From NCBI GenBank assembly GCA_000091205.1, contig AP006489.2: a stretch of DNA of 64,000 bases. One strand, written 5' to 3'. The notes below the pieces were generated by a model. It made no database searches. It had not been told where the DNA came from and saw only the letters and a list, made by a program, of their open reading frames with translations. The translations under genes and the position numbers were made by a program. Positions 3,201 through 64,000 of the stretch are shown in pieces; the first letter of the stretch is position 1, and each line of letters starts with the position of its first letter. Source of the DNA: Cyanidioschyzon merolae (lineage: Eukaryota).

Positions 3201-5254
3201 GGGGTGATTACGCATTCTACGCGCTCATTCAGCGAGCCCTGGAATGCATGGGCGGCATTCAACCATGGGATGATGAGATGCTCAACAACAGTGGTCTAGA
3301 ATCGCTGGCAAGGCCAGCGATTGAGCAGCCAACAAACGCCGAGACATGGCGTTTCCTGCAGACGGTGTTTGAGCCAGAGACGGCAGACGCAAGCTCCCCT
3401 ACGCTTGCGCTGCTCGTGGCACTCGACGCTGCCAAACATGAGTTGCTCCAGGAACTCGCGGCTGGCAAGTGGCCGCTGCGGACGGCTACCGTGCTTCTAG
3501 ATGCCCTGCATGCGACTTTTCTCCAACTGGCCAGTTTCGGAGAGAGGCAGCGCGCGGCCTCGACAACGGTGACACAGTTGTCTAGTACAGAATCTGCATC
3601 GACCTGTTCCGCTGAACGTTCATCATCTGCACCGAGTCTGGGTCTCGAGAAAATCGGCGACTCACTTTGCATGGAAAGTTTCCTGTGCTTGTGTCGCATG
3701 TGGGGATACAGTCGTCCGTCGGCACCACTGGCCGAAACATCTCGAGTCGACGTGCTTGAGCGGCGGCTTGGCGTTATGATAGCTGAAGCCGACACTCACC
3801 ATCAAGATCGCTTGCGCAAAGCCGGGGTCGCGAGCTTTGCCGAGCTCGTCTCGCTTGAATGGCTTCACGCTTTCTGGCGCAATGAACAGCCGCCCGACGG
3901 CCCGAAGTCCTGCGCCTTGGGCACGCGACCGTTTGACGACATCGTCAACGCGGAGAACGACCCCGAGCAGCGGAATATGCGCATACAGATTGTTGCCGAG
4001 TTTCTCCTCGAGCGCTGCTTCCTGCCGTGGGTCCTGATGAAGCCAGCTGCCTACAACAGTGCCATTGCGTGGATAGAGTTGCTTGCGCAGGATCCAAATC
4101 CGACGCCCTTCAATGTGCTGCTCCTGCTTACACTTCTTTTCAAGACAGCTTTTCTGCAGATCGTGGGTATGACCCGCCTAGAGTGCATTCGCCTCGCTCG
4201 CTTCGTGCGTCAGGCGCTGCGTCTCACGGATCGATGGCTTCGATACGGACCCGATGCGTGGCAAAGATATCGCTGTTCCAGGGTGACTTTTCAGGGGCGT
4301 GGCGGTACTCCGTGTCAATGGGCGCAGTACGTCCTCTGGCACGGAATCATGCGCGAAAAGATGCTCAACACAGTCTGTGAAGCGCTGGAGAAGCTGCCCG
4401 AGTCGCTGGTTCACGATCCCTCAATGCAGGACGCTAACGCGGGGTCGCCGCTCCTGTCCACGACGACGGCAAGCGCACCAGGCCCCCAGGATGCGCCATC
4501 CCGAACCGATTCGTTGGAAGAGCACCGCCACATGACGCTGGGCAATATGTTGCGGGCGTTGAACGTTATGGTAGAAGAGTTCCCGTCGCGTAACCAGACT
4601 GCTTCTGAACGTATGGAAAAGGCACTAACCAAACTAATCGAGCACGAGCAGAACGCGACCGAGGATCAACAGCACACCGATATCCTGACGCTCGCAACAA
4701 GCTACCTGGGCCACCTCCGCAGTCGTCAGCGTTGCGCCGCGGCTCGCCAGCGGGCAACAGCGCCACCCGCAGCGAGCAGTGTACCGGCCACGTCCCGTAT
4801 GGGATCCAAGGAGCGCGCCACAAACGGCGCGCTCATCGAGAAAGCGTCGTCCAAGCACCTAGATGTGTCCACAGAGGCTGCGGCCGCTACGCATCAGCCG
4901 GACAGTCGTCACAAGACAGCGCCCGATCACCAAACCGGGGCGGCAGCGCAGCGGCGCTCTGACGAGACGCCCCAGCGCAACCCTGATGGGCGTCGTCCAC
5001 AGCGCGGAGCCCGCACATCGAGGCCTTCGAGGGTGCGGCATTGGCGCGGCAGCGGCGCCCAAGCGCGGAGTCGAGTCACCGCACTAGCGCTCGCGGGAAC
5101 CAGCTGGACCCAAAGGACGTATCACAGGCTCGTGCTGCTGCGTCGACGGCATCACAGCGTCCACACATGCGCCAAGCGCGGTCGCAACCTAGTGGAGCTC
5201 CTTACGACACCGCTGAAGACAGCAGTAGTTGGAAAGGCTCTCGGAGGACCCTAG
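236..5254 (+). CDS. THOC2: THO complex subunit 2-like protein (THOC2/Tho2 family), 1672 aa
   Basis: Uninterrupted ORF from ATG 236. Internal segments 'LPYAYRYALYLN...' and 'DQVQSYDNLVEPVVEMLMWL' resemble the conserved THOC2 core (compare human 'YQHRYRLYGQW' and 'QIQKYDNLITPVVDSLKYL'), and 'QYVLWHGIMREKM' resembles 'HVVHKWHYKLTKA'. The long basic, Ser/Arg/Ala-rich C-terminal tail is typical of Tho2. (CAG)7 at about 1296-1316 encodes a Q-run. Confidence 0.65.
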   Translation: MPPRKRRTTELERLGVHLEESVSDAVPVRRQVRSRTTERVRGGRHDDETTEQVHLTGSDTSDTQKQPKPMPVQQKQPRAAVLQTPKETLSEQLDRALSPLLPFLSWPLHDSKDSELEDAHWQAQLEAAATQTEHFVEELGKDASHESGIDAALAQALWCLYLASASSFEAEPKRSVVTWPDVARTRWTQLLRRLLHRNLLSKAVLVRWLPPESWQQTGLVSELDEPAQWTRSVRRLHTRIHYTQPVYQVFREQPLGFASLLSAFTIWMENADAFSTDTKLDASSNMKPDHALDAIVNEHLSTFHIETNRAYDLGIQMLIAIHEWKLRQHRKAALLNSGPAAGPGAELPQPRTPEEQQQQQQRHSLPDSGVCIRCRTLVEIEQALINWLRGVPSRNAAQLLGFRLQQLQSAAACVTYQKAVPEERLPEAVFLVAARLIHERIVSLEQLWPHVVNADYEDAATVGTDATLATSGQTSTTASPPPKRNTAADARSARAAPIDPASAVQSKPWDELGAFITAQTKALARVRLVERDCSREQASASERGSQASAATASRETDNATKAVDAVYDALSMRGILAPIAGELALLAALIDYDELHLVETWIQRVWLADLTENATLWHCRRELVYAAAPLRYALFAYIMRHISQVTGNGSRVVMATGADAAAAEPSDENNHANDTRALLLRVWRLLGGHLVQRPELFKAMWSIVSSTRAVKRADPAVDAHEAQVDSTVSAFWAGDGILPCSPLLAVLFSQGSAAVPGWLFGDANAALSSLPYAYRYALYLNACATCVRLSSSAEPRASVLIPFWHALYRSMSRRLLRRLAGDTIGYIAKSLEPMLYSEPWAVARIILDQVQSYDNLVEPVVEMLMWLLRARTDLSSASDGERVHALAFALDVFFALFVEELAGSAQNGTQRPRIRSQESGGSLASWFLNTIELVVQLSRRMVEHLAALLPSNENEIHGYESVDPAFTLQQVLQDCWRALLQLAERRIIRGDYAFYALIQRALECMGGIQPWDDEMLNNSGLESLARPAIEQPTNAETWRFLQTVFEPETADASSPTLALLVALDAAKHELLQELAAGKWPLRTATVLLDALHATFLQLASFGERQRAASTTVTQLSSTESASTCSAERSSSAPSLGLEKIGDSLCMESFLCLCRMWGYSRPSAPLAETSRVDVLERRLGVMIAEADTHHQDRLRKAGVASFAELVSLEWLHAFWRNEQPPDGPKSCALGTRPFDDIVNAENDPEQRNMRIQIVAEFLLERCFLPWVLMKPAAYNSAIAWIELLAQDPNPTPFNVLLLLTLLFKTAFLQIVGMTRLECIRLARFVRQALRLTDRWLRYGPDAWQRYRCSRVTFQGRGGTPCQWAQYVLWHGIMREKMLNTVCEALEKLPESLVHDPSMQDANAGSPLLSTTTASAPGPQDAPSRTDSLEEHRHMTLGNMLRALNVMVEEFPSRNQTASERMEKALTKLIEHEQNATEDQQHTDILTLATSYLGHLRSRQRCAAARQRATAPPAASSVPATSRMGSKERATNGALIEKASSKHLDVSTEAAAATHQPDSRHKTAPDHQTGAAAQRRSDETPQRNPDGRRPQRGARTSRPSRVRHWRGSGAQARSRVTALALAGTSWTQRTYHRLVLLRRRHHSVHTCAKRGRNLVELLTTPLKTAVVGKALGGP

Positions 5255-5427
5255 CGACGCAGCACACCGGCAACGAAGCCGAGCGTCACCAGCAAGCTCC
5301 TTCGAGCGAAACCTCAACGAGTCATCGAATGCAGGCATTCTTCCAACGCGCCCAAGCCCGTTAGGCTGCTCGAGACGTGCTGAAACCGAGGATTTATTGC
5401 CGACGTGAGAGAGAAAGTTCACCAGGA

Positions 5428-7345
5428 CACGTGTCGATGCACGCATGCACGCATGCATGCCACCAGGAAGCATCTGGAAGCGCATTGTTCAGCTGCATGT
5501 CAGTGATGCACATGCATAAACGGACGTATGCATACGTACGAACAGGAAGCATCTGGAAGCGCATTGTTCAGCTGCGTGTCAGTGATGCACGTGCATAAAC
5601 GGGCGTATGCATACGTACGAACAGGAAGCATCTGGAAGCGCATTGTTCAGCTGCGTGTCAGTGATGCACGTGCATAAACGGGCGTATGCATACGTACGAA
5701 CAGGAAGCATCTGGAAGCGCATTGTTCAGCTGCATGTCAGTGATGCACATGCATAAACGGACGTATGCATACGTACGAACAGGAAGCATCTGGAAGCGCA
5801 TTGTTCAGCTGCGTGTCAGTGATGCACATGCATAAACGGACGTATGCATACGTACGAACAGGAAGCATCTGGAAGCGCATTGTTCAGCTGCGTGTCAGTG
5901 ATGCACATGCATAAACGGACGTATGCATACGTACGAACAGGAAGCATCTGGAAGCGCATTGTTCAGCTGCGTGTCAGTGATGCACGTGCATAAACGGGCG
6001 TATGCATACGTACGAACAGGAAGCATCTGGAAGCGCATTGTTCAGCTGCGTGTCAGTGATGCACGTGCATAAACGGGCGTATGCATACGTACGAACAGGA
6101 AGCATCTGGAAGCGCATTGTTCAGCTGCGTGTCAGTGATGCACGTGCATAAACGGGCGTATGCATACGTACGAACAGGAAGCATCTGGAAGCGCATTGTT
6201 CAGCTGCGTGTCAGTGATGCACGTGCATAAACGGGCGTATGCATACGTACGAACAGGAAGCATCTGGAAGCGCATTGTTCAGCTGCATGTCAGTGATGCA
6301 CATGCATAAACGGACGTATGCATACGTACGAACAGGAAGCATCTGGAAGCGCATTGTTCAGCTGCGTGTCAGTGATGCACATGCATAAACGGACGTATGC
6401 ATACGTACGAACAGGAAGCATCTGGAAGCGCATTGTTCAGCTGCGTGTCAGTGATGCACATGCATAAACGGACGTATGCATACGTACGAACAGGAAGCAT
6501 CTGGAAGCGCATTGTTCAGCTGCGTGTCAGTGATGCACATGCATAAACGGGCGTATGCATACGTACGAACAGGAAGCATCTGGAAGCGCATTGTTCAGCT
6601 GCGTGTCAGTGATGCACATGCATAAACGGGCGTATGCATACGTACGAACAGGAAGCATCTGGAAGCGCATTGTTCAGCTGCGTGTCAGTGATGCACGTGC
6701 ATAAACGGGCGTATGCATACGTACGAACAGGAAGCATCTGGAAGCGCATTGTTCAGCTGCGTGTCAGTGATGCACGTGCATAAACGGGCGTATGCATACG
6801 TACGAACAGGAAGCATCTGGAAGCGCATTGTTCAGCTGCGTGTCAGTGATGCACGTGCATAAACGGGCGTATGCATACGTACGAACAGGAAGCATCTGGA
6901 AGCGCATTGTTCAGCTGCATGTCAGTGATGCACATGCATAAACGGACGTATGCATACGTACGAACAGGAAGCATCTGGAAGCGCATTGTTCAGCTGCGTG
7001 TCAGTGATGCACATGCATAAACGGACGTATGCATACGTACGAACAGGAAGCATCTGGAAGCGCATTGTTCAGCTGCGTGTCAGTGATGCACATGCATAAA
7101 CGGGCGTATGCATACGTACGAACAGGAAGCATCTGGAAGCGCATTGTTCAGCTGCATGTCAGTGATGCACATGCATAAACGGACGTATGCATACGTACGA
7201 ACAGGAAGCATCTGGAAGCGCATTGTTCAGCTGCGTGTCAGTGATGCACATGCATAAACGGACGTATGCATACGTACGACCAGGAAGCATCTGGAAGCGC
7301 ATTGTTCAGCTGCGTGTCAGTGATGCACATGCATAAACGGACGTC
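5428..7345. repeat. Minisatellite: about 24 tandem copies of a 79-bp unit in 4 variant types
   Basis: The period is 79 bp ('gaacagg' recurs at 5540, 5619 and so on). Unit: GAACAGGAAGCATCTGGAAGCGCATTGTTCAGCTGC[G/A]TGTCAGTGATGCAC[G/A]TGCATAAACGG[G/A]CGTATGCATACGTAC. The variant order is A B B A C C B B B B A C C D D B B B A C D A C C. The array lies between the convergent 3' ends of THOC2 and coatomer beta. Confidence 0.95.
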
Positions 7346-7567
7346 AAGTTCCCAAAGCAAGCTCTCATCAATAAACAGACGCACAAGAGGGCTTGGCGCA
7401 AGTGCCTCAATGTTGCCGATACCAGCGTTGGCAGTTGGGGCAGGTGCCGGCATCCCGCACTTTGGATGCGCCCAGCGTTTCACGTCCAACGCGAGCTGTG
7501 CGATCGCGAGCACGAGAAGGCTTCAAGTGTCCATTACTAGGCGAGATGCCGTATTAAGATGCATACT

Positions 7568-11319: not shown

Positions 11320-11354
<35 letters not shown>

Positions 11355-11439: not shown

Positions 11440-11600
11440 CGTCTACCGTGCAGCGCTCTAGCTCCCAGTTCCATGACCCATACCTCCTCTCGGATATGCT
11501 GGTCGTTCCGTACGTTCTATCGTTTCTTGGCACTGCCGTTTGGGTTGTGTTCCGCGTGAGTACAACAACTGCCAGTGGATACACAGGTGTCGCTCTCCGC
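11440..11600 (-). repeat. Internal fragment of a SINE-like dispersed repeat family (copy e)
   Basis: 'cctctcggatatgctggtcgttccgtacgttctatcgt' aligns to the family core 'cttcatctcggatattctggtcgtttcgtacgccctatcgtgtg' seen at 17.4 kb and 60.4 kb. Confidence 0.6.
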
Positions 11601-15406: not shown

Positions 15407-16227
15407 GTCAGTTCACCTCTCGTCTAGTTCTTGCACAGTTGGCCAAAGGTGCGACGTGAGGTCTCGATCCTAGAACACAGGGTCAGACTAATATGAAGGC
15501 GCAGAAGAGCGCTAGTGGCGTATTGGATTCGTGTTTGCGTGAAGACTGCAGCGCGCCAGCAAGCGGTCAACGCGTGCGACTAGTTCCTGGTATCCAGCGT
15601 GACACAGAAGCGATCCTTAATCGAAAAGGTGCTCCTATTTCGCCGAACGTATGTCGTTCTTTAGGCTACCCAACGAGTACAACTTGACAGTGACGCTACG
15701 GCCGGGCTCTTTAGCGCACCTCAGGTTCTTCTTTTCGCGCACAAGCACTTGCCCTAGAAGCACTGTCTTCGACGATCAGAGGCGTGTCTATCCAGAATGC
15801 CTGAGTTACGCACCAGCACGAGCACGAGAAATACTTGCCAATACGGGTCCCTGTAGCCGGGTAAATCAAAGCTACCCGAAACGGTACGCTGAGCCAACCC
15901 AGTACCCACCGGAAGCCTTCACCACGAGACTGCCACTGTGCACGCTTCCAGTGGACAGGCGACGTCCCAAGCGAACCTGTGCGTAAGCCCCGTTCGTTAC
16001 AACGTACTGCAAGGTGCTGTCGCCGGACGCCACAACCAAAGCTCTTGCCGAGGGCTTACCTGCCTCGAAGCACCGCCCTGGTGGCCGCGGCTACCCAGTC
16101 AGCAGCGCGATGCTCCGCGGCGGGCGGCGTTTTCTGAGCAGCGCGATCGCCGCAGCGGCCCTCATCCCGAGGCGTCTGTGCGTCTACGGTGGCGACGTCG
16201 CTGACTGGCCCGCGTCTGATCCGTATG

Positions 16228-16310
16228 CGATTTTTTTCATTGACAAAACGTTTACTTAGGCCAGCGTTCTCCGATTATGCGCTTTTTTGTTTCTTTCTTT
16301 TTTTTTGTGT
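16228..16310 (-). repeat. 5'-truncated copy (3' A-rich tail only) of the SINE-like family (copy a)
   Basis: 'cgatttttttcattgacaaaacgtttacttaggccagcgttctccgattatgcgcttttttgtttc...' is identical in its first ~55 nt to the ends of the copies at 17335 and 60262. Confidence 0.7.
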
Positions 16311-17334
16311 AATAATCTGTATGAGATCGCCGCAGCGCATGTGGCTAGGTGTGATCTGCTGTGCGCCTTCGATGGCGTCTGTCCATGCGCATTGGTGTGC
16401 CTCAATCAAGGAGAACGCTGCCCTGCTTGCCCCATTCCTATTCATCGATCATTTTTCCAACTATTAAGGGGTATATCTTTTATATTCGAAGCGTGACTGT
16501 AAGAGCTTATGGATACATATGTAGTTCTGGGATTCGTGGTCGTTTTTCCGAGTGGATCCTTCGACACTTTGAGGCAGCAGTTCGATACATCATTAGAGTC
16601 AGGATTATTCGTGACGATCCTATAACATGGGCTCGTAAAATCACCGATATCATGATCGAATTCATATGTACGAGCTTCCAAGCTTCTTTATTGCCTACAT
16701 ATAGAATGCTCAGAGCACGCACTCCCCAGGTTATTGATCGTCCCCTGTGGAGGCAACTCGTGGGCGCACCAAAACGCACCGCTGGATTGACGGGATAAAA
16801 CAACGCGACATCGTCCTTAGGCGATGTGAAAACAAGCCTATGCCGACGTTTCACTAAAGTTGTCATGTATAAGGATCGATTTTGTTCGAAAGACTAGTTC
16901 TTCTGTCGTTTTTGCTTTCGATGAGACGGCATTCGATATCTGCTCGATACATCTCAGTGGATATGCTTCCAGAGGCTCCCGTCTCTTCTGTTTGAATTGG
17001 ATACGTTCTGGACTCGTACATTAGTCCCCCGCACGGTCGCTTCGAGTGGAGCCTGCGTCACCGTATTTCGCGAAGGACGCGTAGACAAATCGAAATGTCT
17101 CGATTTGTCCCCCAAACTCGCTTTTCGATTCGGTAAGTTTTGCCTCACGGAACACATCGCGTGTCACGGATCCTTTATCGAACAATAGATCATGCCCTTG
17201 CGCGTGCGCTAAGTGGATTAGTCGCCGAGTGCTTCGCCCAGAGAAAGCGCATGACCTGAAGGCACAGACTCTGCACGAAAGCAGAGTAAGGCGATCAGGT
17301 TCGCCTTCTGTACTCGTCGAAAGTATGCACTGAT

Positions 17335-17645
17335 CGATTTTTTTCATTGACAAAACGTTTACTTAGGCCAGCGCTCTCGAATTATACGCTTTTTTGTTTC
17401 TTTTTCTTTTCTTTTCCTACTTTTTTGTGTTTTTTCAGTGCGCGGTGAAGTATCCATCAAACACCCTACCTCCATGTTACATTACCTATACTTCGTCTCG
17501 GATATTCTGGTCGTTTCATACGTCCTATCGTGTGTGCCTAGAACCTGCCTTTCTGTATCCGCCTTTGCACCTGAACCGCTCGAGCAGATAGTTCGTAGAG
17601 CTAGAACAGCATTTCTATACCATAGAGGGCGTCGGCTCGAGGGGT
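17335..17645 (-). repeat. SINE-like retroposon copy (copy b); element sense on minus strand, A-rich tail at 17335
   Basis: Aligns along its length with the copy at 60262-60548. It ends 'agagggcgtcggctcgaggg' (17624-17643). It lies in the divergent GH36/GT4 intergenic region. Confidence 0.7.
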
Positions 17646-18507
17646 GCTTCACCCGACATAGAATCGGGTCTCGTCGTCGGTTTGTGCTCGGACAGTCCGC
17701 GAATGTAGGCTTGGCTTCGCTGCACGACACGCTGGAGAAACTTGCTGTTAGTATGAATCCTGGGAGCCGCCTCTCTCCTTCGTGATCATGCATGGAATGC
17801 GTCGTTGGTTGGCAACGCGGGTTTGTGCTTGACACCCACCAGTGGGTAGGCGCAGAAAGCGCACTGGGCCCGTGTGCGCATCCGATTCGCTGGACCTTAT
17901 GCCTAGAAGGTAGATGCACCGATCGATGAGACGAGCGTTCACGCGCCGTACGTCATTGCTCGACGGAGACGTGTAGCTGGAGTTGTGTGAACACCCCAGC
18001 ACGCCCAGGCGCCTCCGCTTCGAAAGGCTTACCGATCCTGTATACAAAAAATGAAAACAGCAAGTAAAGCATCCATTGGAACATGCATCTTCGCATAAAA
18101 TGTGTAGGAATCAGACACCATTGACGAAAGTCGTACTCGATCGCTCCCATCAACATTCCTCGACTGCTATTAATGGAGCTGGAGGGAACGAAGAGACGAC
18201 CGATTTCTAAGCCCGATATAAGACAGACGGATTCTAATCTGTTCATAAAAAAGCCAGCATATGCTCGTGTTTATCATAGTGGCACGAATTCAAAACATGA
18301 GCGCATTCGTGCGTTCCCCCTGAATAGAGACGCTCCATCGATATCTGACTAATGCGCATCGCGCGCGTTCCGCATTGCCAGGGCGCAGCTGAATGCACCA
18401 CGCTGAAAATCTGTGGTGGATACGAGAGGATACCGGGTAGGCGCGTCTGAATTCGGCATTTGTAGTTGTTGTGTGTTGCTGACTCTCGTCCAACGACTTC
18501 GTGCACC

Positions 18508-30494: not shown

Positions 30495-32501
30495 ATGCAT
30501 TTGGCGAGGGAGATGTACGAAGACGTGGCGCACATGGAAAAGGTCGAGGTTCCGGAAGAGGTTTTCGACAAGACGTTTATTCGTCACCTGATGCTTGGTA
30601 CAGAGGAAACGCGGAGGGAAACTGAGCTACTGCATGCCCTCCACGAAAACTTCGTGGAATTCCGCTTCGAGGGTACCCGATGCAGGGGTGACCGGGATAT
30701 TTACACATATGGGGCGATGAAGTACATCACGAACCTGAAGAACCATTTGACAGTGAACCTCGAACGTTACATGATACGCGCCTTGTTTGCACTCTACCCG
30801 GGCATCTGTCCCAAAGGAATATCAGCGATTATCAATGGCATCACGCACGATCGCAAGCTTGAAGATGACATCGAATTTGTCGACAAGAAGGCGTCAAACC
30901 AGAGCACGAATAAGGTGTCCGTCATCCGTGCGGATTTACAAGAGCACCGTGCAGTCATGGAGCTGCCGAATCCAACAGACAAGATATCAGAGTTGAGAAA
31001 AGATAAGGGAAGATACTATCGCCTCGTCCTGCTGTATTTCGTGGTTTTGGACCGAGAACTCGAACGCAAGGCACAGGTGAAGCTGAGTGGGGGAAAATGA
31101 AGAGTGGGAGAGACGGAAGGCTTTCCATATGGGGAAGCGCTTCTACGTCGTTCTAATGTGCACCATCAAGTCACATTTTGTGACTATCGACTCCGCAGTC
31201 ATTCATGGCATCATGAAGGAGATCAGTCCGGAGTTCGATGTTAGCAGGGAGGAATTCTCCGGTGAAAACCGGGAGACGTTCTGGAAGAACATCTTCGATT
31301 TCAAACGTCTGAGGGTGAGCAAACAAAAGGTACTCACTGGGATGATCGAAACCGATGGAGTAGTCATGTGTGTACACTATCGGCGGTTGAAGAAAGATCG
31401 TCCAATCCCCGCCTCGGCGAACCATGAAGATGAGAAGGAGGCGGATCCTGCGAAGCAGGAAGCGGAGGATAACGACTTTGTTGTTGACGTGACGAAGCAT
31501 GAAGATGAGATGGAAGCGGGTCGTGCGACGCAGGAGGTGGAGGATAACGACTCTGTCGTTGGCGCAACGAAGCATGAAGAAAACAAAGAGGAGGATCCTA
31601 CGACACAGAAAGTGCAGGATAACGACTTTGTCGTTGGCACGGCGAAGGATGAAGATGAGAAGGAGGCGGGTCCTGCGACGCAGAGAGTGCATGCGAACGA
31701 CTTTGTCGTTGGCGCGGACCCCGGAAACACGAATATCATCACCATCCCTGCTCCCAAGCGTGCGGAATATGGTACTGATGGCAACTTATGTCAGAAAGAC
31801 ATGCGACTTTCGAGGTTCTCGAGAGCGAGATACTCTCGAGAATCCAGTATAATGAAAGCAAGGAAGAAAATCGAGACGTGGAATGCTAGACTGAAGGAGT
31901 ACCTGGAAGTTTTGAGCGAGGTGACGAGCCGAGGAGCGGACTTTAAAGCTTTTCGGAAATTTATGAAAGTTCGCGTTGCTCATTGAGATGCACTGTGTGA
32001 GGAGTATACAAAGCCGGGTGGGCTCTTCTGCGAATGAACTTGTATTGCCGGAAGCAGCGCGCATTCGCGAACTTTTTCAATGAGTTGAGCGCCCTGAAAG
32101 AGGATGAAAGTCAGAGGCTTGTAATAGCGTACGGAGCAGGGCGCTGGATGACCCAAAAAGGTACTACACCAGCTCCAACGACAAGAACGTACAAAGAGTG
32201 TGCACGGCGTTTTGTCACAGTACCTGTAGATGAGTTCCGAATATCGTATACACACCATGAACTGGGACGTACACTTCAAAGGGTCGAGATGGAAAAGTGC
32301 CAGGGGAGTCCTGAAGACATAGCAAAGTACGGACCGCTGCCGGAGGTGCAAATGGAGAGGAGGACAAAAGTGCGAGGGCTACTCGCATTCGTAAGTACAA
32401 CCAACGACGGCAAGAAACGTATGGAGTTTGTGAACCGAGACTTTAACGCCGGCATCAATATCAGGAGATGCGCGGTGATGGAGAAAAGGCCTCCACAGTA
32501 G
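30495..32501 (+). CDS. Fanzor/TnpB-like RuvC endonuclease, about 650 aa, split across three frames (introns or frameshifts); possibly a pseudogene
   Basis: ORF A is 30495-31100, ORF B is 31087-31986 and ORF C is 32034-32501. RuvC-I is '[17 protein letters not shown]' (about 31705-31740). A TnpB-type pre-zinc-finger segment reads '[22 protein letters not shown]' (compare TnpB 'LeYKa..G..vv.Vdp.yTSq.C'). RuvC-III is '[13 protein letters not shown]' (about 32436-32470; compare 'D.NAA.NI'). The A/B junction falls at a G5A4 homopolymer and needs a 1-nt frame change. The B/C junction needs a length change congruent to 2 mod 3. Confidence 0.65.
31420..31727 (+). repeat. Four in-frame tandem copies of a 75-nt (25-aa) unit ending in the RuvC-I motif
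   Basis: '[25 protein letters not shown] / [25 protein letters not shown] / [25 protein letters not shown] / [28 protein letters not shown]'. The nucleotide units are about 80% identical. Confidence 0.85.
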
Positions 32502-32760
32502 ACAAGAGAGAATTTTAAAGGACAACTGCTCAAAGTGGAACTATATGAGAAACAATTGGAACCAGTCGTAAGTGGCCGATCCAAGAAGACGGGGAGGCGT
32601 CTGCACGTCAGTTCGAGACTGCTTGTCTAGGGCGGGTTTATCGCCACCACTGTGCACCGCTGGCGGCGGTCGACTTTTGGAAGGTATTCGCTAGAGGTGC
32701 TGTTTATAGGGATCAAGTCTCTGAAGCGAGATGCTTTCACGACCTCTGCCGCTCCAGACG
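32400..32760 (+). ncRNA. Predicted position of the Fanzor omega-RNA (overlapping the 3' end of the nuclease ORF and extending downstream); not directly recognisable
   Basis: By analogy with TnpB/Fanzor loci, where the guide RNA scaffold overlaps the 3' end of the nuclease ORF. Local inverted repeats are present, for example 'tagacaag' at 32502 paired with 'cttgtcta' at about 32625. No conserved motif was verified. Confidence 0.2.
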
Positions 32761-54799: not shown

Positions 54800-56833
54800 T
54801 CAAAAGGCGAGCTCGAAACTCATGACCAACTACCTCCGCACTACGGTGAGGATGCTCTTCCGATGCAAATCAGCAGCAGTTTCTTATTCGAAGAGTTTTA
54901 GTCTAGGCTGCAGATTTGAACGGAACAGCCAGTGACCTGTTAGCGCTCTCAGCAGCACCCTGTATTCAACGCTACAACGCCGCTATGATTGCGCGATGCA
55001 AAGAACGAACCAAAGCACTTCAATGTGATCGTGCTCATGAAAAAATGCTTTGGCAGGGCGCCCTGCATCGGAACAGAAATCATTCTTTCTCTTTAATATA
55101 TAAAAGCGAGGCATGAAGAGGGCAACTACCAAGGTTTCACATGACGACATTGATGCTTTGTAACATTGAATACATTATAGAAAAACTTCTGCGCTTTTCA
55201 CACCGTTTGACTGATGATAAAAACATAATACGAGATATCTTTCACCGAAGAAGCCTTTGCAGATAGAAAACTCGCAGATAAACAAAATCGGAAGCCGGGT
55301 AACGATACAGCAAGCAGTAATATTCACTGTGCAATAACCGAGATTTTAAAATCACTAGTCCTTCGACACAGATCCCGACGGACTAGGCGTGACGGACTCA
55401 CACATCTCTGAATTTGAGTGGAAATTCGATCTGAGCGACAATTCTACATCAGCGACAATGCCGTCAGGACTACCAAAACCCCTCGTAGGCAAACTCAACC
55501 GCAAGTTTGAATTCGACAAGGTCCGCGCAATTTACCACAGCATGCAAGCCATTAAGGAAAGCTGGGCATTTACAAAGCAGGTCGCTTGTGATTTAATGAT
55601 ATAGGATTAAAACAGACCATCAAAAAACTTTTGTTACGAAAGCGGTAGCCCACTGAAGAAGTGAGTTACATCAGGGTGCATCCCGCTCCTCAGCTCGCGC
55701 GCTCTCGACGCAGAACACACTCAGAAATATCACAAAAAATAGAACACGATTACCCTTCACCAACGACCCAGGAAAACCATTCCTAGTGTATCCATATGCC
55801 TCTCCAGCTTTCCCGGACTCTGAACCATGCCATGCAAGTGCCCTGCTCCAGGCGGGATTTCAGCGCCGCCCCTCTTGGCCACTGAATTGGGTCTATCGCA
55901 AGTCCTCGCCATTTCAGCACGATGCCCACAACGGGCACTGCAATACTCCCACCAAAGCTCGCTCGACACAAGCTCGCTGTACGCTCCAGGACCAGCAAAC
56001 ATTTCGGGTTGTTGATTGGCCCGTCCGGCTCGGCGGAGAACGTGCTTCCGTGCACTGTTGCTGGCGATATCACACTATGACGAGCTTCTCACTTTCGATT
56101 GCCTCGCAATGCGACGTTCGGTCAGCTTGCCGCCCAAGATCTCGTGGCATCCGACTCTGTTTCAATCTCGCCTTCTCCAGATGCTGCAGCCTACGCCTTC
56201 GCACGTGATGGATCTATGCCGTCCAAAGCGCATCGATGTAAATCGTACTAATCGGTTCCTGCACGCGTTGTACGCTCCCGTCGAAGGAGAGGGAGAGCAG
56301 CCCGCACGCGCCCCAGCACCTCCAGCGCCATAGACTAACACAAAACCACGCGACTTGTCGGCCATTTACTTTTCTAACTCACTGAACTAGTATATTCTCA
56401 CGATTCCTGCATATACAAATCGGTAGATGTTGGCGACCCCAGCGCTGTTTCAAGTACCCGGCCAATGTTCGTTCGTATACGACATTTGGACACTCAGGCA
56501 CTCTCTGAATCAAGCGCACGGGGGATCCGTTTCTGGTCAATCCGGCGCGCAGAACGTCGGGATGGGCCCTGAAGCCGTCATTCCGCGTGCCGGTACGCCT
56601 CGTTGAGTCGACCATGCCCGGCTCGCGATAATGCCGAGCCCCGGAGAAGCTGAGTTGCTCCATCTGATTGCCGCACAGCTGTTTGCATGCGTCCTTTCAA
56701 TTTAGGGGCACGGCGGAAGCTACGGCGTTCTTCATACAGGGATCCACGCCCGCCACAAAGACTGTCCCGTAAGCTACCATGCACGATTGAGAACGAGTCT
56801 TGTTGCTCGGCTCAGCTCAGGGTTTCACAACGT

Positions 56834-58985
56834 GCATGCAGCCTGGTATCCCGTAGGTCTCCGTCGCCCCTGTAAAATTCTTTCCATTTCCTCCCCGTAA
56901 CGAAGCAACCCTGAGGGAGCTCCGGCAATGCTCCATACGAAGCTGATCGAAAGCTTCGTAATTACCGGAAGAGAGGAGGCATAGCTCGCCGCGGAAACTA
57001 TCTAGTATGAAACGAATATGCCTACGGTAACATGGCAGGCCTTGATATGAAATATGGGAGTACTTCGAACGGACGCTTGAGGAGTCTTAGGCGCTCGCAC
57101 ACAGTGAGGGAGTTTGCGTTGCTATGGAGGGCTTCCTCGAAGAAAGCGCAGTAGCTCGTATGCAAGGAAGCTAGGCATCACATTTCAACCATCCCCTCTA
57201 TGGGTCGTGCGTCGGTCCGACCCCGCGAGCAATACGATGAGCCTGCGCCCCCACAGTCGGCTCTCGCGATCGTTGCGTTTTCCCTTCTGCGCTTGCTACG
57301 AACTCCATCTCGTCCGCCCAGAGCAGCTCGCCTTTTAACTATAAAGATACCGCTAGAAACTCATCCATCAGTCCCCTCTTTCCTGGGTCAGTGAATTGAG
57401 GGTACATCGCCCACAGGGTGCGGTTCATGAAGCGCTCGAGAGTGGCCGCATATTTTCTTCGGTTTTTGACGATAGTTTGATACTTTTTGGCACAGCGCGG
57501 TAGCTTTCTTTCGTTGCCCACATACAGCGACGACGCGTCAAAGCATTCTGCGATTCATGTGTGTAGCCGCTCGTCCTACAATCAGGCCGTGCTGCATATT
57601 GCGTTCAGAGCATCAGTTGCGCGTCGTCGCGCGAAGTCTTCATCGAGGAACTCCAGAAGAACGTGGACACCATGGAGTCCTATGTCGGAACTTCCGCAGA
57701 CCGTTGCTTGACCAGGCGGCTCAAGACGAGAGAGGCTAGGCGCGCATTATTCGGGTAAGGAGCTTCTCGAGCCTTCACGACGTCCCGGATTTCGCGTTTT
57801 GGAAGAGCCTCCCCGTTGAAGTGTGTTTGTCGGGAGACCTTGGCAACGGTTTCAGACTGATATTTCCGCTCCGACAGCTTTCCTTCCTGTACCACTTCGT
57901 CCCGTTTTCTGAAGGCTCTTCCGCTTCCTTGTCTGGTGGTCCCTCGCCCTTCTCCTTGACTTGGCGCGGCGGCAGAACTGTTGCCGCTATATTCCATATC
58001 CAGGTTTTTCGTCGGGATTCAGACAAACTAGGTGGATTCTAGCACTGCCATTCGCCCGCTCGATGGATCTATGTATCTAATTCGCTCCGAGTACACTTTC
58101 GTCAGTGCTTCCGTGGCAAGCACAAGCATGAGCCGAGGCGCACCTCCTCGCTCGCTCACACGAACCGCAAGAGATGCAACAAAGCAGTTCATGGCGAAGA
58201 AAACAAAGAGGGACTTGTCGAACAACGATCTCATGGGCGCGAGCCACTTCTCTATTGATCCGTGAGCGTAAGAATGGAATTTGGCACCGGAGAAGAAACA
58301 GTCGACTGGATTAAACCATGGAGAATGGGCTAGTGCGAAGAGCAGCTCCACGAAAATCACAGATGCGTACCCCTTGACCACCTTTGGGTTATGGAAATCG
58401 AGATCGTCTCAGAACAGGACAGAAAAATGTGGAAAGAAGGCACCACAAGTGCTTCGACGAAGAAAGAGCTTTTGAGTGATCCAGTCCATTTGGGGATATG
58501 TGGGCGATCGCACGACTGCATTTCCGCATGGGTTGGTGTTGTCGCCATTCTCGCTTGTCTCATTACTAGGAAGATGGTCCTCGCTGGGGGCGCGCTTTTT
58601 CGCTCGTCTATCCGAGTCTCTTCATAACCAACCGTATCAACGGCGCGTAAATTTCCCGTCCTGTGGCTTCATTGAAAGTTCTGCTCTGAACACATATGCA
58701 GCGGAAGGAATTGAGGAGAAAGTCGAGCAGATTAATTTCTATATCATCTGACTCGGGTGCACGGCGTTCAGGATAGGGGCTACGAGAAGGGTGGTTCATC
58801 CACCAGCTGACGGCAGGGCGACTTGCAGTATACATGTAGAGACATTTTGGCCAGCTTCCAGTACCACCACAAAGGCTATCCGCGAATTTTTTGCTCAGTT
58901 TAAGGGATACATCTTTGTGTTGAATTTCTGCGAAAAAATCAAAAAAATACAAAATGACGCGCTGGTGTAGGGGTGCAGGATATCA
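56834..58985. repeat. Inverted-repeat arm 1 (at least 2.15 kb; the partner runs off the window end)
   Basis: The reverse complement of 61848-64000 matches 56834-58985 essentially exactly. ORF-track pairs such as 58032-58265(+) and 62568-62801(-) give identical peptides. No RT, integrase or DDE transposase motifs were seen in the arm ORFs. Confidence 0.9.
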
Positions 58986-59334: not shown

Positions 59335-59555
59335 GGCACCCGAGTCAGATGATATAGAAATTAATCTGCTCGACTTTCTCCTCAATTCCTTCCGCTGCAT
59401 ATGTGTTCGGAGCAGAACTTTCAATGAAGCCACAGGACGGGAAATTTACGCGCCGTTGATACGGATGGTTATGAAGAGACTCGGATAGACGATCGAAAAA
59501 GCGCGCCCTCAGCGAGGACCATCTTCCTAGTACTGAGACAAGCGAGAACGATCAC
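59335..59555. repeat. About 220-bp diverged partial copy (about 95% identical) of the inner IR segment, in arm-2 orientation
   Basis: 'cacccgagtcagatgatatagaaattaatctgctcgactttctcctcaattcc...' appears at 59338 and at 62078, with a handful of substitutions between them. Confidence 0.85.
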
Positions 59556-59879
59556 AAAATCAGCCTTAGTGTTCTGAAAATACAGATACTAACCATCAAA
59601 TAGAAATTCGATATCAATTTTCTTCCTACTTTACGGTAACCATTGAAAGGGGAAAGCATTTGCTTATTCTCAAAAGTTCGGTTTCCAGGCTGAAAGTCGC
59701 ACGAGCCTTCCGAGCCTGCCAAGCTTTCGCTCCACATGCCTCTTTATAGCCTGGTGCTCTAGCAAGGCTTGAACAGCTCGTCCGCTGTGCGGGATAGTCT
59801 GGGACTTCGCGTGCTCAGGCTGTGTCTGGGACTCGCTCTCGTCGCGATGCTACTCTGACACATTGCTTCGCGCTTTTGC

Positions 59880-60200
59880 TTGCAGTGCGCCTGTCTGCGC
59901 GGATTGCAGGCTCTCAGCAATATAATGAATCCCGATCCCGAGTCGGCGAAAAACGCAGCGAGCTTACGTCTTCGGTGGTACGGCAAAGCCGTCCTGTCTG
60001 CGTGCTGCATTCGCACCTGCGGGATAGGCGCTAATGCTGGTGCCCACGATAGACTCGGCGCAAGATAGAACGTTCGAAACGACCAGTATGTCCGAGGGGA
60101 AGGATGGGTAATAGAACTTGAAGATAAGATTACGCATGACTGACGCTTTCCCGAATGCCAATATCGACCCCGCAGTCTGGGATCCATGGTCTACACAAAC
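59880..60200 (+). repeat. Older, diverged SINE-like family copy (copy d), element sense on plus strand
   Basis: '...cgtcctgtctgcgtgctgcattcgcacctgcgggataggcgctaatgctggtg...cgaaacgaccagtatgtccgag...' aligns at about 70-75% to the reverse complement of copy c. It lies tail-to-tail with copy c. Confidence 0.6.
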
Positions 60201-60261
60201 GCTCTCTCTGACAAAAATGCACATTTTCCGCGCTCACGGGTCGCGTGCGATACTCTTTCGA

Positions 60262-60548
60262 ATTTTTTTCATTGACAAAACGTTTACTTAGGCCAGCGTT
60301 CTCCGATTATGCGCATTTTTCTTTTCTTACTTTTTGTGTCTTTTTCAGTGCGCGGTGAAGTATCCATCAAACGCCCTACCTCCAAGATACATTACCTATG
60401 CTTCATCTCGGATATTCTGGTCGTTTCGTACGCCCTATCGTGTGCCGAGCGTGCCGAAAGCGACAGCAGTAGCGCCTATAGCGCCAGTGCGGTCGCTGCA
60501 CGGAGACAGAACGGCGTTGCCGTACCGCAGAGGGCGTCGGCTCGAGGG
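60262..60548 (-). mobile_element. SINE-like non-autonomous retroposon (copy c) with a 12-bp target-site duplication
   Basis: The element is flanked by the direct repeat 'atactctttcga' (60250-60261 and 60549-60560). In element sense (minus strand) it starts 'CCCTCGAGCCGACGCCCTCT' and ends in the A-rich tail '...AAAAAGACACAAAAAGTAAGAAAAGAAAAATG...GTCAATGAAAAAAAT'. This is the same family as copies a, b, d and e. It sits about 50 bp upstream of the 60599 ORF. Confidence 0.7.
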
Positions 60549-60598
60549 ATACTCTTTCGATGTGACACGCTTTCGACGCGGCTACAGCGCTGCCGCAA

Positions 60599-61660
60599 GT
60601 GATGTCGCTGACCTTGTTTCCAGAGGGTATACACCCACGGATTCCTGTGGAACCTCAGGACCTTGTATGCTTGCAGTGTCCTGAAGCTAACCTTGGCCGG
60701 TCGCTGCTTTATTCTCTTGCTGAACGGGCAGCCCTTTTCAGCTCGAACGGGTTGACGTACCACGTGTTCCTCATTGACGGCGACTGTCTCAGCGGCGTTG
60801 TCGGACAAGGCGAGTGTGCCAGAGAGGTACTATGGAAGACTTTGCTAGAAGCCAGAACAGAGGCGACTGTGGAGGAGCCTTTGGCCATAGATCGTGTTTC
60901 TATTGCAGTGTGCCACTCGTTTAAGGAAAGCCTTGCTTGTCTTCGAGGCATTCTGCATACTGTCGAGCAGTTGTCACGGGAATTTCCCGAAAACACGCGA
61001 ACGGTTCCTGAACGAAAGCTTTCACTTCGGACTACTGTATCGCCATTTCCGCATCATGTAAAAGCGAGTCAGAACTTCTCGCTTTTGTCGCTTCCGCATG
61101 AACGGCAAATTTCTCAGAACTTGGAAAGCTTTAATGAACCAAGCTCAACCTCTTTCAAAAGCTTTTCAGAGAGCGTTGCACTTACCGACAATTGCATAGT
61201 GAAAACACCGAGCACGCTGCCAGTATCGAATGTTCCTAGCCATGAATACGTGTTGATTCTTGTTGATGGTATCGGGAATTCTTCGGGTATGCTTGGAAGC
61301 GAATATTACAACACCTGCATCATTGATCTCAGAGAAGAGCTTCGTGATATTTTACGTCAGCTGCTCGCCAGTGCGTACGTTTCAATTGTTTTTCGCGATT
61401 CTCTTATGGGTACGAAAACTGAGAGCATTGCACGCGAGATTCCAATCGAGACAAGCGGGGCTGATGGAACGATAGAAAAAATGCTGCGCAATCTCCTGAC
61501 GAAATCAGTGTTGGTCGAACATTCTTCGATGCCGAACGAAACGTATAGATTATGCTTTCGACAATTCCATCCGTCTGGATCACTCCAGCTTGAGTGGGAA
61601 AGTTTTTTAGGCGAGCCTCTCCATCCCGCTTTTAAATGGCTTCGAAGCAAAGCAGCGTAA
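60599..61660 (+). CDS. Orphan 353-aa hypothetical protein in the core between the inverted repeats
   Basis: Clean ATG-initiated ORF (MMSLTLFPEG...) with no domain I can recognise. Representative segments: 'TYHVFLIDGDCLSGVVGQGECAR' and 'HEYVLILVDGIGNSSGMLGSEYYNTCIIDL'. Confidence 0.45.
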   Translation: MMSLTLFPEGIHPRIPVEPQDLVCLQCPEANLGRSLLYSLAERAALFSSNGLTYHVFLIDGDCLSGVVGQGECAREVLWKTLLEARTEATVEEPLAIDRVSIAVCHSFKESLACLRGILHTVEQLSREFPENTRTVPERKLSLRTTVSPFPHHVKASQNFSLLSLPHERQISQNLESFNEPSSTSFKSFSESVALTDNCIVKTPSTLPVSNVPSHEYVLILVDGIGNSSGMLGSEYYNTCIIDLREELRDILRQLLASAYVSIVFRDSLMGTKTESIAREIPIETSGADGTIEKMLRNLLTKSVLVEHSSMPNETYRLCFRQFHPSGSLQLEWESFLGEPLHPAFKWLRSKAA

Positions 61661-61847: not shown

Positions 61848-64000
61848 TCACATCCTGCACCCCTACACCAGCGCGTCATTTTGTATTTTTTTGATTTTTT
61901 CGCAGAAATTCAACACAAAGATGTATCCCTTAAACTGAGCAAAAAATTCGCGGATAGCCTTTGTGGTGGTACTGGAAGCTGGCCAAAATGTCTCTACATG
62001 TATACTGCAAGTCGCCCTGCCGTCAGCTGGTGGATGAACCACCCTTCTCGTAGCCCCTATCCTGAACGCCGTGCACCCGAGTCAGATGATATAGAAATTA
62101 ATCTGCTCGACTTTCTCCTCAATTCCTTCCGCTGCATATGTGTTCAGAGCAGAACTTTCAATGAAGCCACAGGACGGGAAATTTACGCGCCGTTGATACG
62201 GTTGGTTATGAAGAGACTCGGATAGACGAGCGAAAAAGCGCGCCCCCAGCGAGGACCATCTTCCTAGTAATGAGACAAGCGAGAATGGCGACAACACCAA
62301 CCCATGCGGAAATGCAGTCGTGCGATCGCCCACATATCCCCAAATGGACTGGATCACTCAAAAGCTCTTTCTTCGTCGAAGCACTTGTGGTGCCTTCTTT
62401 CCACATTTTTCTGTCCTGTTCTGAGACGATCTCGATTTCCATAACCCAAAGGTGGTCAAGGGGTACGCATCTGTGATTTTCGTGGAGCTGCTCTTCGCAC
62501 TAGCCCATTCTCCATGGTTTAATCCAGTCGACTGTTTCTTCTCCGGTGCCAAATTCCATTCTTACGCTCACGGATCAATAGAGAAGTGGCTCGCGCCCAT
62601 GAGATCGTTGTTCGACAAGTCCCTCTTTGTTTTCTTCGCCATGAACTGCTTTGTTGCATCTCTTGCGGTTCGTGTGAGCGAGCGAGGAGGTGCGCCTCGG
62701 CTCATGCTTGTGCTTGCCACGGAAGCACTGACGAAAGTGTACTCGGAGCGAATTAGATACATAGATCCATCGAGCGGGCGAATGGCAGTGCTAGAATCCA
62801 CCTAGTTTGTCTGAATCCCGACGAAAAACCTGGATATGGAATATAGCGGCAACAGTTCTGCCGCCGCGCCAAGTCAAGGAGAAGGGCGAGGGACCACCAG
62901 ACAAGGAAGCGGAAGAGCCTTCAGAAAACGGGACGAAGTGGTACAGGAAGGAAAGCTGTCGGAGCGGAAATATCAGTCTGAAACCGTTGCCAAGGTCTCC
63001 CGACAAACACACTTCAACGGGGAGGCTCTTCCAAAACGCGAAATCCGGGACGTCGTGAAGGCTCGAGAAGCTCCTTACCCGAATAATGCGCGCCTAGCCT
63101 CTCTCGTCTTGAGCCGCCTGGTCAAGCAACGGTCTGCGGAAGTTCCGACATAGGACTCCATGGTGTCCACGTTCTTCTGGAGTTCCTCGATGAAGACTTC
63201 GCGCGACGACGCGCAACTGATGCTCTGAACGCAATATGCAGCACGGCCTGATTGTAGGACGAGCGGCTACACACATGAATCGCAGAATGCTTTGACGCGT
63301 CGTCGCTGTATGTGGGCAACGAAAGAAAGCTACCGCGCTGTGCCAAAAAGTATCAAACTATCGTCAAAAACCGAAGAAAATATGCGGCCACTCTCGAGCG
63401 CTTCATGAACCGCACCCTGTGGGCGATGTACCCTCAATTCACTGACCCAGGAAAGAGGGGACTGATGGATGAGTTTCTAGCGGTATCTTTATAGTTAAAA
63501 GGCGAGCTGCTCTGGGCGGACGAGATGGAGTTCGTAGCAAGCGCAGAAGGGAAAACGCAACGATCGCGAGAGCCGACTGTGGGGGCGCAGGCTCATCGTA
63601 TTGCTCGCGGGGTCGGACCGACGCACGACCCATAGAGGGGATGGTTGAAATGTGATGCCTAGCTTCCTTGCATACGAGCTACTGCGCTTTCTTCGAGGAA
63701 GCCCTCCATAGCAACGCAAACTCCCTCACTGTGTGCGAGCGCCTAAGACTCCTCAAGCGTCCGTTCGAAGTACTCCCATATTTCATATCAAGGCCTGCCA
63801 TGTTACCGTAGGCATATTCGTTTCATACTAGATAGTTTCCGCGGCGAGCTATGCCTCCTCTCTTCCGGTAATTACGAAGCTTTCGATCAGCTTCGTATGG
63901 AGCATTGCCGGAGCTCCCTCAGGGTTGCTTCGTTACGGGGAGGAAATGGAAAGAATTTTACAGGGGCGACGGAGACCTACGGGATACCAGGCTGCATGCA
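61848..64000. repeat. Inverted-repeat arm 2 (truncated by the window end)
   Basis: See arm 1; the inner junction is at about 61848-61850. Confidence 0.9.

Follow-up and report, generated by a model that had tools for sequence, protein, structure and literature searches.

The stretch of DNA analysed here, 64,000 nucleotides long and hereafter called the window, belongs to chromosome 7 of Cyanidioschyzon merolae 10D, an alga used as a model and noted for a genome nearly devoid of transposons. The window has a G+C content of 53% and its ORFs are long and intron-less, including those for coatomer beta, topoisomerase III alpha and Cox11, which are exact protein matches to BAM79575, BAM79581 and BAM79589, respectively. 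In the published survey of this genome (Nozaki et al. 2007, PMC1955436), the class I elements number 26 and are all of the non-LTR type, LTR elements are not reported, eight class II elements are counted, a 3.2-kb repeat with a WSV486-like ORF occurs in 253 copies, and the share of transposons is put at 0.7%.

The original prediction placed five copies of a SINE-like retroposon family in the window, and all five were recovered by self-BLAST, a repeat finder and profile nhmmer (E-values from 1e-93 to 5e-15). At 60262..60547, on the minus strand, a copy of a unit named S285 (285 or 286 nt; nhmmer E=1e-93, match 60263-60547) corresponds to the last ~285 nt, that is the 3' UTR, of a LINE of subfamily B. 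In element sense, which is the minus strand of the window, it runs from 5' CCTCGAGCC... to ...GTCAATGAAAAAAAT 3', with a 3' end reading GAAAAAAA(T), and over its whole length it is 90% identical to the tail of a deleted LINE derivative found in metagenome locus L016. Tail-to-tail with it, at a distance of 45 nt, lies an older and diverged 5'-truncated LINE 3' end of ~330 nt on the plus strand (59888..60216; nhmmer E=2e-21, within a range of 5e-17 to 2.6e-30), which shows 74-77% identity to the family by BLAST and had previously been described as older and in opposite orientation at 59880-60200; upstream of it, LINE-type sequence carries on. On the minus strand at 17339..17913 we find a 5'-truncated LINE 3' end of 575 nt belonging to subfamily A (E=3.6e-212 with a LINE 3' profile), which shares 86-87% identity with the final 545-556 nt of L069, L027 and L025, long copies that bear reverse transcriptase (RT) sequence. 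This copy had been given as 17335-17645, an extent that fell short, since its true length is ~575 nt (17339-17914) and not 310 nt. Also on the minus strand, a copy of 83 nt at 16232..16314 (E=1.6e-18, match 16232-16306) holds just the extreme 3' tail of the LINE, its profile alignment agreeing with the earlier description of 16228-16310 as a tail left by 5' truncation. The fifth copy, again on the minus strand, is an old internal fragment with both ends lost (11449..11579; E=5e-15), matching the fragment proposed at 11440-11600; it covers positions ~57-182 of the S285 model, with 80-84% BLAST identity over 56-70 nt, and shortly upstream of it, at 11322-11352, is a (GGC)n microsatellite, in the intergenic region between the coatomer-beta and GH36 genes. 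Window copies correspond in this way to the last 83, 285, ~330 and 575 nt of the LINE, and the five are a mixture of truncated LINE ends of 83 and 575 nt, two old fragments and a 285-nt unit; the copy at 60262-60547 is the only one among them that behaves as a discrete short element.

Several other repeats share the window. An inverted repeat with arms 100% identical over at least 2149 nt (56833-58981 and 61852-64000, running off the window end; at least 3268 nt in metagenome contigs) encloses the two tail-to-tail LINE copies together with an orphan ORF of 352 aa (60602-61660); the arms were considered as a dispersed repeat and rejected as such, with only one weak match of 65%. A repeat of ~213-230 nt occurs at 58531-58760, 59336-59565 and 62073-62302, and a tandem array of ~27 units of 79 bp, 95-97% identical, lies at 5293-7488 between the THO2-like and coatomer-beta genes. 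At 31696-32618 on the plus strand there is a Fanzor1/TnpB-like coding stretch, with a 75-bp tandem repeat at 31418-31715. The stretch had no Pfam match; its identity to L069 9199-10143, an intact ORF of 314 aa with RuvC-like motifs (VGVDPG, VDEFRTS and NRDFHAAINI), is 76-78%, and many of the fetched metagenome loci contain related ORFs. It is probably the CMe-1A element (Bao & Jurka 2013, PMC3627910) as well as the 'WSV486-like' repeat of 253 copies (Nozaki 2007). Both CMe-1A, which bears Fanzor1, and TE-N2_CMe are C. merolae repeats named in PMC3627910, and their descriptions set them apart from the LINE tails. A single element combining the CMe-1A repeat with the LINE tail was discarded, because spacing and orientation are inconsistent across loci and the Fanzor-like ORF of the window has no tail nearby.

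A parent LINE and its truncated copies

Copies beyond the window were sought with a 21-mer, GACAAAACGTTTACTTAGGCC, taken from the conserved end and identical in three window copies, which was used to scan hot-spring metagenome assemblies that also contain contigs ~99.8% identical to the window. The scan returned 67 metagenome loci, which by their flanks represent 26 sites (or 25, should L017 and L023 be allelic), 19 of them in one metagenome, Ga0078972. BLAST searches with the 285-nt unit, covering the window and the fetched metagenome loci, gave 35 distinct copies, and the further genomic copies anticipated for the element do therefore exist. The 3' terminus ...GTCAATGAAAAAAA is common to all 26 sites, and in element sense every copy ends in ...GGCCTAAGTAAACGTTTTGTCAATG(A/G)A(4-9), followed at once by unrelated flank, although the copies were sampled through a 21-mer from this very tail and its apparent conservation is inflated for that reason. 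The A-rich tail originally proposed is present as a terminal A-run, but it comprises only 4-9 A and there is no long poly(A); being so short and near-constant from copy to copy, the run would seem to be templated by the RNA.

At their other end the copies are highly variable. Sequence is lost from the 5' end only, the 3' end being constant with its A-run, and the 5' extents fall at 33, 39, 46, 54, ~63 (five copies), 100, 162, ~270-285 and 404 nt, continuing to 545, 632, >1600, >2850 and at least 3878 nt. Three long copies (L069, L027 and L025) carry, on the same strand and ~1.0-2.4 kb upstream of the A-run, frame-shifted RT sequence with the motifs ...FAPEQAGFR..., ...FIDFQEAFDTVPH... and ...ADDAVLLA..., which matches Pfam RVT_1 with E=5e-20 as a decayed non-LTR reverse transcriptase. 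Its best relatives of solved structure (PDB) are R2 (1.6e-12) and human L1 ORF2p (2e-9). Two entries from C. merolae 10D, both named 'retroelement, alive', are among the closest database proteins, with RT identities of 84% (P0053) and 81% (P0068), each over half of the query. Since the RT frame stops ~390 nt short of the 3' end, the last ~390 nt are 3' UTR. No intact full-length element was present among the copies recovered, and Pfam found no APE or REL endonuclease domain in translations of the decayed long copies. The 'retroelement' family of the published survey resembles our long copies in being of non-LTR type, from the same organism and 81-84% identical in its RT; the parent LINE is already annotated and counted in C. 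merolae (PMC1955436). Given that the window copies match the final stretches of this LINE, the 'SINE-like family' is the 3' end of a known C. merolae LINE, mostly in 5'-truncated form.

The flanks of the copies add a second line of evidence. Around the copy at 60262, the perfect 13-mer GATACTCTTTCGA is found on the 3' or A-run side (60249..60261) and on the 5' side (60548..60560), abutting both element ends with 13 of 13 bases matching; the duplication of 12 bp reported before (ATACTCTTTCGA) is indeed at both places, but it is one base longer than it was described. The copy at 17339 is flanked by ATGCACTGATCGAT on its 3' side (17325..17338) and ATGCACCGATCGAT on its 5' side (17914..17927), a pair matching in 13 of 14 bases (ATGCAC[T/C]GATCGAT), and the copy at 16232 keeps a decayed target-site duplication (TSD) with 11 of 13 bases matching (16219-16231, ATCCGTATGCGAT; 16315-16327, ATCTGTATGAGAT). 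When 5' junctions were compared with the sequence after the A-run at 18 sites, with all mismatched flank pairs as a control, 11 of the 18 scored at or above the 99th percentile of the control, which was 8 against a score of 13 for the copy at 60262. The lengths of these duplications range from 10 to 21 nt, mostly 13-15, and they start where the A-run ends. Moreover, empty sites reconstructed for 13 insertions revealed a target preference for C|ATC, with C at -1 in 10, A at +1 in 11, T at +2 in eight and C at +3 in eight of the 13.

Truncation from one side, a constant A-run end, variable duplications and a target motif constitute together a signature of target-primed reverse transcription. We consider it very probable that the repeats are 3'-terminal LINE pieces inserted through this mechanism, with the copy at 60262 as a discrete form of 285 nt. 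In such a process, an enzyme of the element would nick the target, preferentially at C|ATC, and the nicked DNA end would serve as the primer for reverse transcription of the element RNA, beginning at the 3' end of that RNA (...GUCAAUGAAAAAAA), with the tail presumably recognised by the reverse transcriptase. Copying would usually halt before the 5' end, so that the 5'-truncated copies would measure from ~34 nt up to several kb and have duplications of ~13-15 bp on either side.

At three of ~25 sites a newer copy either lies tail-to-tail with an older, oppositely oriented copy or is nested within the 3' part of it: in the window (59888-60216 / 60262-60547), at ~8077-8335 of L036, and in L069/L043 beside a long LINE 3' end. 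This arrangement could reflect either the target preference or a crowding of insertions into the few intergenic spots that tolerate them.

As for the age of the insertions, copies differ by about 11%, with a range of 5-20%. Neither the suggestion that the element was recently active nor the one that it contributes promoter sequence finds support. The copies are ~89% alike and every homologous contig has the insertion: the eight contigs that align colinearly with the region around 60262 all carry it, and all loci spanning the positions 16232 and 17339 carry those copies. An empty site was not found for any window copy among colinear metagenome contigs, which leaves recent activity unproven. L074 was examined as a candidate empty site for the copy at 60262 and rejected, as its junction joins the flank of the 285-nt copy of another site (site 26) to the window copy; at 4380-4460 of this locus, in comparison with L056/L057 and the window at 60262, the 3' flank of the site 26 copy is directly joined to the 285-nt copy of the window. 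Such a join arose either through chimeric assembly over the repeat or through ectopic recombination of two copies.

The 285-nt form and the deletion derivatives

The copies that reach CCTCGAGCC fall in two classes. In the LINE-type class the upstream sequence continues as ...ccgattctacgtcgggtgaagcaca|CCTCGAG, while the second class comprises five sites with unrelated flanks (window 60262, L011, L056, L040 and L020) whose copies start exactly at CCTCGAGCC, three of the five directly after the TSD; the older partial copies at L036:8154, L022:5027 and L043:1324 may also belong here. In an alignment and the derived neighbour-joining tree, the five 285-nt copies cluster with the tails of L016 and L053 and apart from the LINE-type tails, from which they differ mainly in one variant segment of ~90 nt, with mean identities of 89% within the 285-nt group and 79% between groups. 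A discrete common 5' end is therefore a property of the five 285-nt copies, set against a family that overall extends from 33 nt to at least 3.9 kb. These observations suggest that the 285-nt form is a discrete unit without RT, made of LINE 3'-UTR sequence alone and having a fixed 5' end.

Internally deleted derivatives of the LINE that lack the RT were also detected in L016 (12720-14430), L053 (122-1530), L013 (1861-2043), L048 and L015. Those in L016 and L053 occupy different sites and have one common junction, where the LINE at ~-2440 is joined beside the start of the 285-nt unit, within a few nucleotides of the CCTC point at which the unit begins. As separately located copies with a single junction, they must have been copied after the deletion arose. 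The derivative at L013:1861 has the same left breakpoint as these two and a different right one, with a CACG microhomology. The breakpoints of L016, L053 and L013 suggest template switching or the propagation of deleted copies.

What the common 5' end of the 285-nt copies represents is a matter of interpretation. Most likely, the 285-nt form is a non-autonomous 'mini-LINE', a putative RNA mobilised in trans through the 3' tail that it shares with the LINE. A more specific version, which we put forward just tentatively, is that of a putative RNA separately transcribed or processed, which would start at a defined 5' end, lack a Pol III head and be copied in trans by the LINE enzyme by means of a conserved and structured tail. 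If this were true, the end of such an RNA may in addition seed the internally deleted derivatives through template switching. With regard to structure, single-sequence folding of the 285-nt RNA was no stronger than that of shuffles on either strand (z = -1.5 and -1.2). In a consensus fold from 15 copies, two hairpins differ between subfamilies A and B by compensatory changes. This conservation is suggestive only, because in essence a single A/B split underlies it and the alignment that shows it also served to predict the structure.

Another reading is that all the short copies, those of 285 nt included, are plain 5'-truncated LINE insertions, their common 5' end marking a point at which reverse transcription or the joining of the second strand is prone to stop; such a hot spot could perhaps belong to a LINE of subfamily B not represented in our sample. 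The continuous range of other lengths speaks for it, as do a LINE-type copy with a tail resembling subfamily B (L072:4985) and a second group of 5' ends, less tightly clustered, between about -69 and -92 within the internal A-rich tract. On the contrary, a hot spot fits poorly with five 5' ends at exactly one nucleotide, with a clade of 285-nt copies separate from the sampled LINE-type tails, and with the two separately inserted derivatives of L016 and L053, whose junction within a few nucleotides of the 285-nt start suggests that an RNA end, or the boundary of a module, recurs there. Plain truncation of the 285-nt copies is the less likely reading, yet a serious alternative. The A-rich tract itself, 69-92 nt from the 3' end, holds the truncation points of the window copy at 16232 and of L010, L017/L023, L041 and L021.

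A genuine SINE, transcribed by Pol III from a head derived from tRNA, 7SL or 5S and with a tail borrowed from the LINE, would also account for five 285-nt copies with a single 5' end, TSDs and their own clade, and a weak B-box-like string (GTTCGAAAC) can be read in the old copy at 60072-60080. As expected for a SINE, a 3' tail common to the partner LINE and flanking TSDs are present. Nevertheless, ARAGORN reported no tRNA-like genes in the window, and Rfam gave no tRNA, 7SL, 5S or other family at gathering score and, when relaxed to E=10 over 59800-60700, only a chance sRNA match (E=6.9). The head related to 5S, tRNA or 7SL that was looked for on the basis of the original prediction is accordingly missing, and the same searches (ARAGORN; Rfam at gathering score and up to E=10) brought up neither such a head nor a ribozyme to explain the fixed 5' end. 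With no tRNA, 7SL, 5S or ribozyme module, the defining head of a SINE is absent, and there is no room for a foreign one because the unit aligns colinearly with the LINE 3' UTR over its full 285 nt. Furthermore, most family members are not 285 nt long, and a sense-strand TTTT located 10 nt before the A-run would in many eukaryotes stop Pol III ahead of the tail. We regard a true SINE as highly improbable. The notion of a stand-alone SINE does not survive either, as the family members align colinearly with the 3' end of a non-LTR retrotransposon encoding an RT, over 34 nt to at least 3.9 kb; what stands of the retroposon family first proposed is its dispersal, its A-run 3' end and its TSDs, but not the SINE label.

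A solo LTR or the remnant of a DNA transposon (MITE), with which a size of ~290 bp and a flanking direct repeat fit superficially, can practically be dismissed: the ends read CCTCGAG... and ...GAAAAAAAT, with no TG..CA pair or terminal inverted repeat in the aligned termini, in agreement with the original assignment to retroposons; the TSDs are variable (10-21 bp) and not fixed; truncation affects one end only; the family runs on into a non-LTR reverse transcriptase; and LTR elements are not reported for this genome (PMC1955436).

Related elements and the mobile DNA of C. merolae

Compared with known retroelements, the behaviour of the C. merolae LINE is that of 5'-truncated L1 insertions, which likewise show truncation restricted to the 5' side, a 3' A-run, variable TSDs of ~10-20 bp and nested insertions. 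The differences concern the A-run, which in the alga is short, nearly fixed and apparently templated, the target, which is C|ATC instead of the TT|AAAA of L1, and the RT, only remotely similar to that of L1 ORF2p and scoring slightly better with R2. Among non-autonomous relatives of LINEs, the eel elements UnaL2 and UnaSINE1 form a stringent LINE/SINE pair, and RIME/ingi, NARTc/L1Tc and HAL1 are examples of deletion derivatives. Like non-autonomous derivatives of LINEs in general, the 285-nt unit is short, lacks the RT and has the 3' end of its parent, and like the deletion derivatives, L016 and L053 keep both 5' and 3' parts of the LINE at separate sites. Unlike these systems, however, the 285-nt unit has neither a LINE 5' part nor a Pol III head, consisting of 3'-UTR sequence alone; its mobilisation in trans and the recognition of its tail are presumptive. 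The searchable literature yielded no description of the short tails, the 285-nt unit or the deletion derivatives.

Altogether, these results do not change the understanding of retrotransposition: they describe LINE biology of an ordinary kind, to which a non-autonomous form adds modest interest. Short LINE tails lacking the RT are scattered through the intergenic DNA of C. merolae, with five in this 64-kb window. The published count of 'retroelement' copies was based on RT similarity, by which short tails of 34-650 nt without RT, the 285-nt form and the deletion derivatives would be missed, and it therefore probably understates how much the LINE has been copied. In practical terms, a defined 3' end, a TSD length and the C|ATC motif are useful for the annotation of the genome and for picking or avoiding integration sites. 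Both the 285-nt form and the deletion derivatives may be mobilised non-autonomously. Should the 285-nt unit prove to be an RNA of its own, copied in trans by the LINE, it would be an analogue of a SINE without a head, and perhaps more successful than any other mobile sequence in a genome that counts among the most transposon-poor of free-living eukaryotes.
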